Assembly (NCBI RefSeq): GCF_003334255.1
Contig: NZ_QOWU01000144.1
Reading direction: 5' to 3' (one strand)
DNA from: Escherichia coli
GTDB lineage: Bacteria; Pseudomonadota; Gammaproteobacteria; Enterobacterales; Enterobacteriaceae
DNA length: 1,877 nt
Both the position numbers and the translations under genes were made by a program. Shown here one piece after another: positions 824-878 of the stretch (positions are counted from its first letter, which is position 1; the number at the start of each line of letters is the position of its first letter). The notes below the pieces were generated by a model that was not told where the DNA came from, searched no databases, and saw nothing but the letters and a program-made list of their open reading frames with translations.

Positions 824-878
824 GTTCCTTCACATAAAAATTTATGTAAACATCCGCTTATCTGTTTATATAAATGTT
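824..878 (-). promoter_or_regulatory. Short AT-rich spacer between the two co-oriented minus-strand genes, carrying palindromic elements and the SD of the downstream gene.
   Basis: The inverted repeat ACATAAA-aa-TTTATGT at 832..847 lies immediately upstream of the SD (forward 825..830). A perfect 10-bp palindrome TTTATATAAA is at 865..874, and TTTATGTAAA (841..850) is a near-direct repeat of it. From the lines I sampled, this spacer looks like the most AT-rich stretch in the window. Confidence 0.3.

Follow-up and report, generated by a model that had tools for sequence, protein, structure and literature searches.

Polymorphic toxin systems are said to include orphan immunity-gene arrays, composed of SUKH/Imm cassettes. 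The island between yfbL and nuoN in Escherichia coli resembles such arrays, with small genes of unassigned role, a patchy spread and strain-variable cassettes. Moreover, an SMI1/KNR4 gene is found in the island of some strains, and a YfbO homologue is encoded immediately behind one LHH-toxin gene and a pair of SUKH genes. The E. coli island differs, however, in that no toxin gene adjoins it, YfbP shows no profile similarity to the SUKH proteins compared, and an immunity role is putative for both YfbO and YfbP. Type II toxin-antitoxin operators provide a second comparison for the spacer between yfbO and yfbP, as in both cases short palindromes accompany a pair of small co-oriented genes. In the toxin-antitoxin systems the operators precede the first gene and serve as binding sites for the antitoxin, whereas the palindromes of this spacer lie between the genes. 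In addition, yfbO and yfbP are separable, unlike the members of a toxin-antitoxin operon, and neither protein has a toxin-antitoxin or DNA-binding domain.

Two kinds of RNA element are also comparable. Similar to intercistronic and Shine-Dalgarno (SD)-sequestering stem-loops, the spacer places a hairpin between one stop codon and the next SD; one fold pairs part of the SD and an alternative fold uses the same segment. Its stems, however, are nearly pure A-U and weak (-5 to -7 kcal/mol), the accessibility of its SD is not significantly below that of shuffled sequences, and there is no diverged junction on which covariation could be read. Rho-independent terminators share with the spacer a hairpin followed by a U run, here found on both strands, but the spacer stem is not G+C-rich, its loop is 10 nt and it was not called in a terminator scan.

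The window, the whole 1,877-nt stretch of E. coli DNA that was analyzed, is 100% identical at positions 78-1800 to the yfbN-yfbO-yfbP segment adjoining nuoN in E. coli K-12. It is a K-12-type yfbN'/yfbO/yfbP' segment between two IS1 ends, with the following features:

1-77 and 1801-1877, direct (same) orientation: IS1 ends, bracketing a 1.72-kb chromosomal piece
78..820, minus strand: yfbP, encoding a TPR protein, truncated here by IS1 after codon 247 of 282
818..823, minus strand: tandem ATG ATG of yfbP, with the RefSeq start at 820-818 and an alternative in-frame ATG at 823-821
826..831, minus strand: Shine-Dalgarno GAAGGA of yfbP, 5 nt before ATG 820 and 2 nt before ATG 823
879..881, minus strand: yfbO stop codon TAA, where homology with yfbO alleles lacking yfbP ends
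879..1301, minus strand: yfbO, 140 aa, Pfam PF27222 (YfbO)

The spacer occupies 824-878 (55 nt), from the yfbO stop (881-879) to the yfbP start, and yfbN starts at 1510 on the plus strand. For yfbO the 140-aa start was preferred over a 158-aa ORF, since nearly all full-length homologues are 139-141 aa. The spacing of the SD favours the RefSeq start of yfbP (820), because 5 nt separate the two, compared with only 2 nt for ATG 823.

Among 5426 complete E. coli genomes, neither IS1 junction (77/78 in yfbP, 1800/1801 in yfbN) occurs as a contiguous sequence. The layout resembles an IS1 composite or rearrangement specific to this strain. IS1 was also seen at other yfbN sites in other strains. A plasmid origin of the segment was considered and rejected, the single match being a 365-kb record with an intact locus. 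In the window the yfbP ORF (56-820) continues into IS1, ending in ...SSETVMLPTY before a stop codon, and the last 35 codons are gone. Because this truncation removes residues that are invariant in the YfbP family (F251, R254 and F257), yfbP is probably non-functional here. The question of what the spacer does is therefore partly moot in this window, where IS1 already destroys the downstream gene. The other truncated gene, yfbN (1510-1800), is cut by IS1 after about 97 of 238 codons; the YfbN N-terminus weakly matched the UBA-like end of TIGR00264 (nascent-polypeptide-associated-complex) at E = 0.0016, far under the curated cut-off.

A first-pass annotation had described a cluster of palindromes in this spacer. 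The element ACATAAA-aa-TTTATGT is found at 832-847, as described, and adjoins the SD (831-826) one base away. Similarly, TTTATGTAAA at 841-850 and the perfect 10-bp palindrome TTTATATAAA at 865-874 are exactly as given. These elements are parts of a larger nested quasi-palindrome, 829-879, which contains three TTTAYRTAAA-like 10-mers:

829..838, no strand: 10-mer copy 3, TTCACATAAA (reverse complement TTTATGTGAA), the left arm of the SD-proximal palindrome
841..850, no strand: 10-mer copy 2, TTTATGTAAA, the segment common to both inverted repeats
865..874, no strand: 10-mer copy 1, TTTATATAAA, the self-complementary, perfect 10-bp palindrome
829..850, minus strand: inverted repeat with 10-nt arms (829-838 and 841-850), 9/10 complementary, with 2 nt between the arms
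836..879, no strand: inverted repeat with 17-nt arms (836-852 and 863-879), 15/17 complementary, with a 10-nt loop

The 10-mer at 829-838 is inverted relative to that at 841-850, and the outer edge of the 17-nt-arm repeat (879) is the first base of the yfbO stop codon.

As first annotated, the elements are only mildly unusual when set against dinucleotide shuffles of the spacer. In 6.7% of these shuffles a perfect inverted repeat of 7 nt or more arose, and in 11.7% a 10-bp palindrome, while the two were found together in 1.7%. The larger architecture was compared with dinucleotide shuffles and with a natural control of 198 windows of 58 nt, each at least 70% A+T, drawn from 250 kb of E. coli K-12. 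In these tests, which were devised after the sequence had been seen, a palindrome with 10-nt arms was found in 2% of shuffles and in 3/198 natural windows, and three copies of one 10-mer (at most one mismatch, either strand) in 0.1% and 0/198, respectively. A repeat with 17-nt arms was found in none of 5000 shuffles and none of the 198 windows. The full repeat architecture is clearly non-random and is no by-product of A+T richness. Its rarity is the pattern expected of a selected element and counts against a reading without function; the chance tests themselves establish the repeat structure as real and say nothing for function.

Of 5426 complete E. coli genomes, about 1000 carry the locus, which is nearly invariant among them. 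Over positions 700-1000, identity is at least 99% in 981 of 1005 genomes, and the same holds for the spacer copies of all 975 E. coli genomes compared. Four loci with a frameshifted yfbP, in a lineage where the gene is split into ORFs of 157 aa and 91 aa (apparently by frameshift), retain an identical spacer and an unchanged yfbO. This invariance reflects recent common descent; because the whole allele is near-identical, it is uninformative on constraint, with which it is also compatible. A second yfbO allele is ~91% identical in DNA, and 24 records fall in the 90-95% identity band over the yfbO region. The two of these that were inspected, PapRG-06-5 and 1604D011, lack yfbP, and their yfbO abuts the nuoN terminator. 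Their similarity to the K-12 type ends at the yfbO stop codon, and the 3' flanks diverge from the first base beyond it. A 69%-identical yfbO on another enterobacterial contig also has an unrelated 3' flank.

From the side of yfbP, the nearest full-length relatives are those of Leminorella (65% identical) and Superficieibacter (62%), neither of which follows yfbO. No palindromes were found upstream of yfbP in these two genera, and only a purine-rich SD in the same place and A+T richness are held in common with the E. coli spacer. In a protein search, full-length YfbP sequences were lacking in the range from 65% to 100% identity; a single cluster fell within it, at 95%, and this is the frameshifted fragment, which has an identical spacer. 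Likewise, no diverged yfbO-yfbP junction suitable for covariation was found among the E. coli copies or the related loci compared. Outside the near-identical E. coli copies the elements are thus absent from related loci, an outcome that the first-pass annotation had itself named as counting against a function. The spacer appears to exist at this one junction only. It either came in together with yfbP or arose afterwards, so it could hold cassette-specific signals.

The first-pass annotation had also treated the two genes as partners, a premise contradicted by yfbO without yfbP in some E. coli, by yfbP orthologues without yfbO, and by yfbO homologues without yfbP. YfbO and YfbP have different, patchy phylogenetic distributions, yfbP is a presence/absence polymorphism in E. 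coli, and the two genes are apart in every non-E. coli context examined. In Leminorella, yfbP is found alone, without yfbO. In Superficieibacter the yfbK-yfbL ... nuoN site holds a yfbP orthologue directly after yfbL, together with a convergent gene of 241 aa. This site behaves as a cassette-swapping hotspot across genera. Homologues of YfbO are found after yfbL, after a gene of a tRNA-synthetase family (PF00579), and in an LHH-toxin/SUKH array. In the last setting, from a 7.8-Mb genome, a 56%-identical homologue belongs to a co-oriented array of an LHH-toxin-domain protein, two SUKH_5/SMI1_KNR4 proteins, YfbO and a 103-aa protein. This array is the best clue that YfbO may be an immunity-type protein.

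Neither YfbO nor YfbP matched any toxin, antitoxin or defence model, and no toxin-domain gene was found between yfbK and nuoN. The proposed toxin-immunity or antitoxin operon survives in spirit only, in that the island itself is immunity-like: its tandem cassettes are variable and include recognised immunity families, and in PapRG-06-5 and 1604D011 an SMI1/KNR4 gene lies between yfbN and yfbM. YfbP consists of an N-terminal beta domain and TPR-like helices (model pLDDT 93.3). The idea that its N-terminal domain is SUKH-like, suggested by a GNGDxFGLYWP motif, was rejected on an hhalign probability of 2.8% against three SUKH proteins; a weak SMI1_KNR4 match was seen in 1 of 40 YfbP family members. 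Together, yfbM, yfbN, yfbO and yfbP resemble orphan cassettes of an immunity-like kind that have been shuffled, and yfbO and yfbP are best described as separable cassettes of a variable H-NS-associated island, and not as a toxin-immunity pair.

A sigma-70 scan of 824-878 (-35 and -10 hexamers 16-18 bp apart, at least 9/12 matches, A2 and T6 in the -10 hexamer) found no site. The best relaxed match in the spacer is 8/12, with -10 hexamers that lack the final T. These candidates are TATAAA ending at 865, and TAAATT and CATAAA ending at 839-841; with the latter two, transcription would begin within the ribosome-binding site. In the 8.3-kb locus as a whole, the sole further match to the 10-mer is in the yfbL-yfbK intergenic region, and none is found in the yfbN-yfbO promoter region. 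The internal promoter or operator suggested in the first annotation is therefore not borne out.

An arrangement in which a dimeric DNA-binding protein occupies the three 10-mers and controls a yfbP-specific promoter in the spacer would account for three near-palindromic copies within 46 bp, rarer than chance, with starts 12 and 24 bp apart. It would also suit a spacer that belongs with the yfbP cassette rather than with the yfbO 3' flank, and Leminorella, where yfbP faces a divergent gene over a 240-nt gap and must therefore have its own promoter. Even so, such an internal promoter or operator is improbable, given that the spacer has no sigma-70-like call and nothing better than 8/12, the locus has no recognisable regulator gene, the 10-mer is missing from the yfbN-yfbO promoter region, and the motif is not kept upstream of yfbP orthologues. 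Consensus sites for TyrR, PhoP, ArcA, Fur, CRP, SlyA and DnaA were also compared by eye, and were rejected as half-site or wrong-spacing resemblances. Covariance models from Rfam 15 gave 0 matches at E <=1 over the whole window.

The first annotation had further proposed a weak A/U hairpin that could occlude or position the yfbP SD, and had suggested folding the minus-strand transcript. When this was done, the 16-nt element (832-847) folded in the sense RNA at -2.0 kcal/mol only. An extended hairpin, 852-826, reached -6.7 kcal/mol and pairs G831, A830 and A829, three of the six SD bases, at the 5' edge. The hairpin formed by the 17-nt-arm repeat (836-879) folds at -5.6 kcal/mol in the sense RNA and at -9.5 kcal/mol on the plus strand, a preference that is uninformative since one mismatch becomes a wobble pair on each strand. 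The folds of the two inverted repeats are mutually exclusive because both need 841-850. In isolation the hairpins greatly exceed shuffles in stability (z of -3.3 and -4.3), which only restates their palindromy, whereas contexts of 77 and 101 nt are not unusually structured (z of -1.0 and -0.3). The SD has an unpaired probability of 0.22 in the natural sequence and of 0.40 +/- 0.21 when the upstream spacer is shuffled; 16% of shuffles reach 0.22 or less, and the loss of accessibility is not significant. The weak A/U hairpin beside the SD was thus recovered, but occlusion of the SD is within the range of shuffled sequences. Nothing shows a function for the palindromes beyond weak hairpins beside the yfbP ribosome-binding site.

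The common segment 841-850, two folds of similar energy (-5.6 and -6.7 kcal/mol) and an arm that lies at the stop codon would allow a ribosome-toggled switch, in which translation of yfbP is inversely coupled to that of yfbO. This is very improbable, as is its proposed mechanism: a ribosome at the yfbO stop would melt the 5' arm (875-863), and the freed 850-841 would pair with 838-829 and bury the SD edge. The relation between yfbO and yfbP would then be the reverse of ordinary translational coupling. None of the tests demands such a switch.

The stop-proximal hairpin might instead act at the end of the yfbO message. In a leaky attenuator or 3'-end hairpin, 875-840 followed by UUUUUAUGU would form a weak intrinsic terminator or a block to 3' exonucleases, and yfbO message would accumulate above that of yfbP. 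Directly past the stop codon the sense RNA does contain a 12-bp interrupted stem followed by U5, and the isolated 46-nt element has a z of -3.25. However, this stem has one G-C pair, a 10-nt loop and just -5.6 kcal/mol, and the same hairpin is stronger antisense (-9.5 kcal/mol), where the mismatch is a wobble. A scan for intrinsic terminators (at least 3 G-C pairs, a loop of 3-8 nt and a U-tract directly after the stem) made no call in the spacer, failing on the G-C pairs. No yfbO 3' end is present in the tables searched, where expression is probably very low, and altogether an attenuator seems distinctly improbable. These published 3'-end and Rho-termination tables contain nothing for yfbO or for sense yfbP, and both genes are probably too poorly expressed for the tables to be informative.

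The only entry for the pair is antisense to yfbP, a Rho-dependent 3' end from the literature that lies at K-12 position 2389543(-) and has a Rho score of 11.1. It maps to about window position 393, assuming the numbering of NZ_CP026357.1, and is probably the stop of read-through from the nuo operon. A terminator-like hairpin was also observed on the plus strand at 351-364, followed by a T-run, antisense inside yfbP (~351-395).

The GC content is 0.32 at 801-900, and the A+T content of the spacer is at the 98.5th percentile within the window. No part of the window is richer in A+T than the yfbN-yfbO divergent region, 1302-1509 (26-34% GC). This region contains minus-strand promoter-like matches, such as ATGTCA-16-TATGAT at 1511-1484, and transcription of yfbO(-yfbP) probably originates there. 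The sequence TCGATAAATT is reportedly a high-affinity motif for H-NS. It is matched at 8/10 positions by TACATAAATT on the minus strand at 848-839, one of 7 matches of this quality in the 1.9-kb window.

An A/T-tract quasi-palindrome could in principle be a preferred high-affinity or curved patch on which H-NS nucleates and which helps to silence the yfbN-yfbP island; its palindromic look would then be incidental to A/T-tract composition. In agreement with this, yfbN appears in two genome-wide sets of H-NS binding and within a predicted genomic island, and SlyA overexpression derepresses it (PMC5797941); within the yfbO-yfbP part of the window the spacer is the short stretch richest in A+T, and 848-839 carries the motif match. 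Similar to known H-NS nucleation sites, the patch has an A+T content of 75% and belongs to an island with reported H-NS association (regional, and from the literature only). As a candidate site it differs from them in that its motif match is no better than others in the window. Moreover, with 7 matches in 1.9 kb the motif is unspecific, and 1302-1509 is longer, even more AT-rich and a more obvious nucleation site. A role in H-NS silencing is thus unlikely, although of appreciable weight.

The coincidence of the yfbP presence/absence boundary with the outer edge of the right arm (879), in an island whose content varies among strains and genera, raises a last alternative. The inverted 17-mers might be the entry site of the yfbP cassette or its remnant (Xer/dif-like, attC-like or a transposon-excision footprint). 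A Xer/dif-like site was rejected, as it needs 11-bp arms, inner CATAA/TTATG and a centre of 6-8 bp; the spacer has a centre of 4 bp (N4), and CATAA-N6-8-TTATG is found nowhere in the window. An integron attC site was also rejected. The inverse core RYYYAAC and the core GTTRRRY are both absent from 824-881, and no integrase is annotated. Further evidence against recombination is that the far end of yfbP has no matching repeat, no integrase or recombinase gene is nearby, and the element is single-copy. Nor is the spacer a dispersed repeat (REP/BIME, ERIC or MITE), being present at a median of 1 place per genome and a maximum of 2. A recombination scar or site is accordingly scarcely credible.

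The account favoured here, which holds about half of our confidence, is that the spacer is the junction of two independently distributed accessory cassettes, with the yfbP ribosome-binding site and weak, mutually exclusive A/U hairpins. The sole well-supported functional element in the spacer is the yfbP translation-initiation region (SD 831-826, ATG 820). Formation of quasi-palindromes by template switching is established in E. coli. The yfbO and yfbP cassettes lie in a variable, AT-rich, H-NS-associated island between yfbL and nuoN in K-12-type E. coli, and the quasi-palindrome 829-879 would have arisen when AT-rich foreign DNA underwent local duplication or template switching. Most yfbP message would come from joint transcription with yfbO, initiated in the yfbN-yfbO divergent region. 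In this mRNA two exclusive weak A/U hairpins may form, one at 875-840 just past the yfbO stop, the other at 850-829, burying the first three SD bases. Their expected effect would be at most a modest dampening of yfbP translation relative to that of yfbO, and would not involve a switch, promoter or operator. The other explanations, in descending order an H-NS patch, an operator or internal promoter, a leaky attenuator and a recombination scar, each retain some probability because the repeat pattern is unusually regular.

Two cautions follow from this locus. Short palindromes can be statistically real without being regulatory, and invariance over hundreds of E. coli genomes carries no information if the whole allele is near-identical. 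The spacer, an AT-rich intercistronic quasi-palindrome in a poorly expressed, strain-variable accessory island, matters little in itself. Deletions of yfbO and of yfbL have been reported to confer resistance to phage N4, which is reversed by complementation (bioRxiv 10.1101/2025.09.29.679331). The surrounding biology, with its immunity-like cassettes and yfbO as a reported N4 host factor, is more interesting than the spacer.
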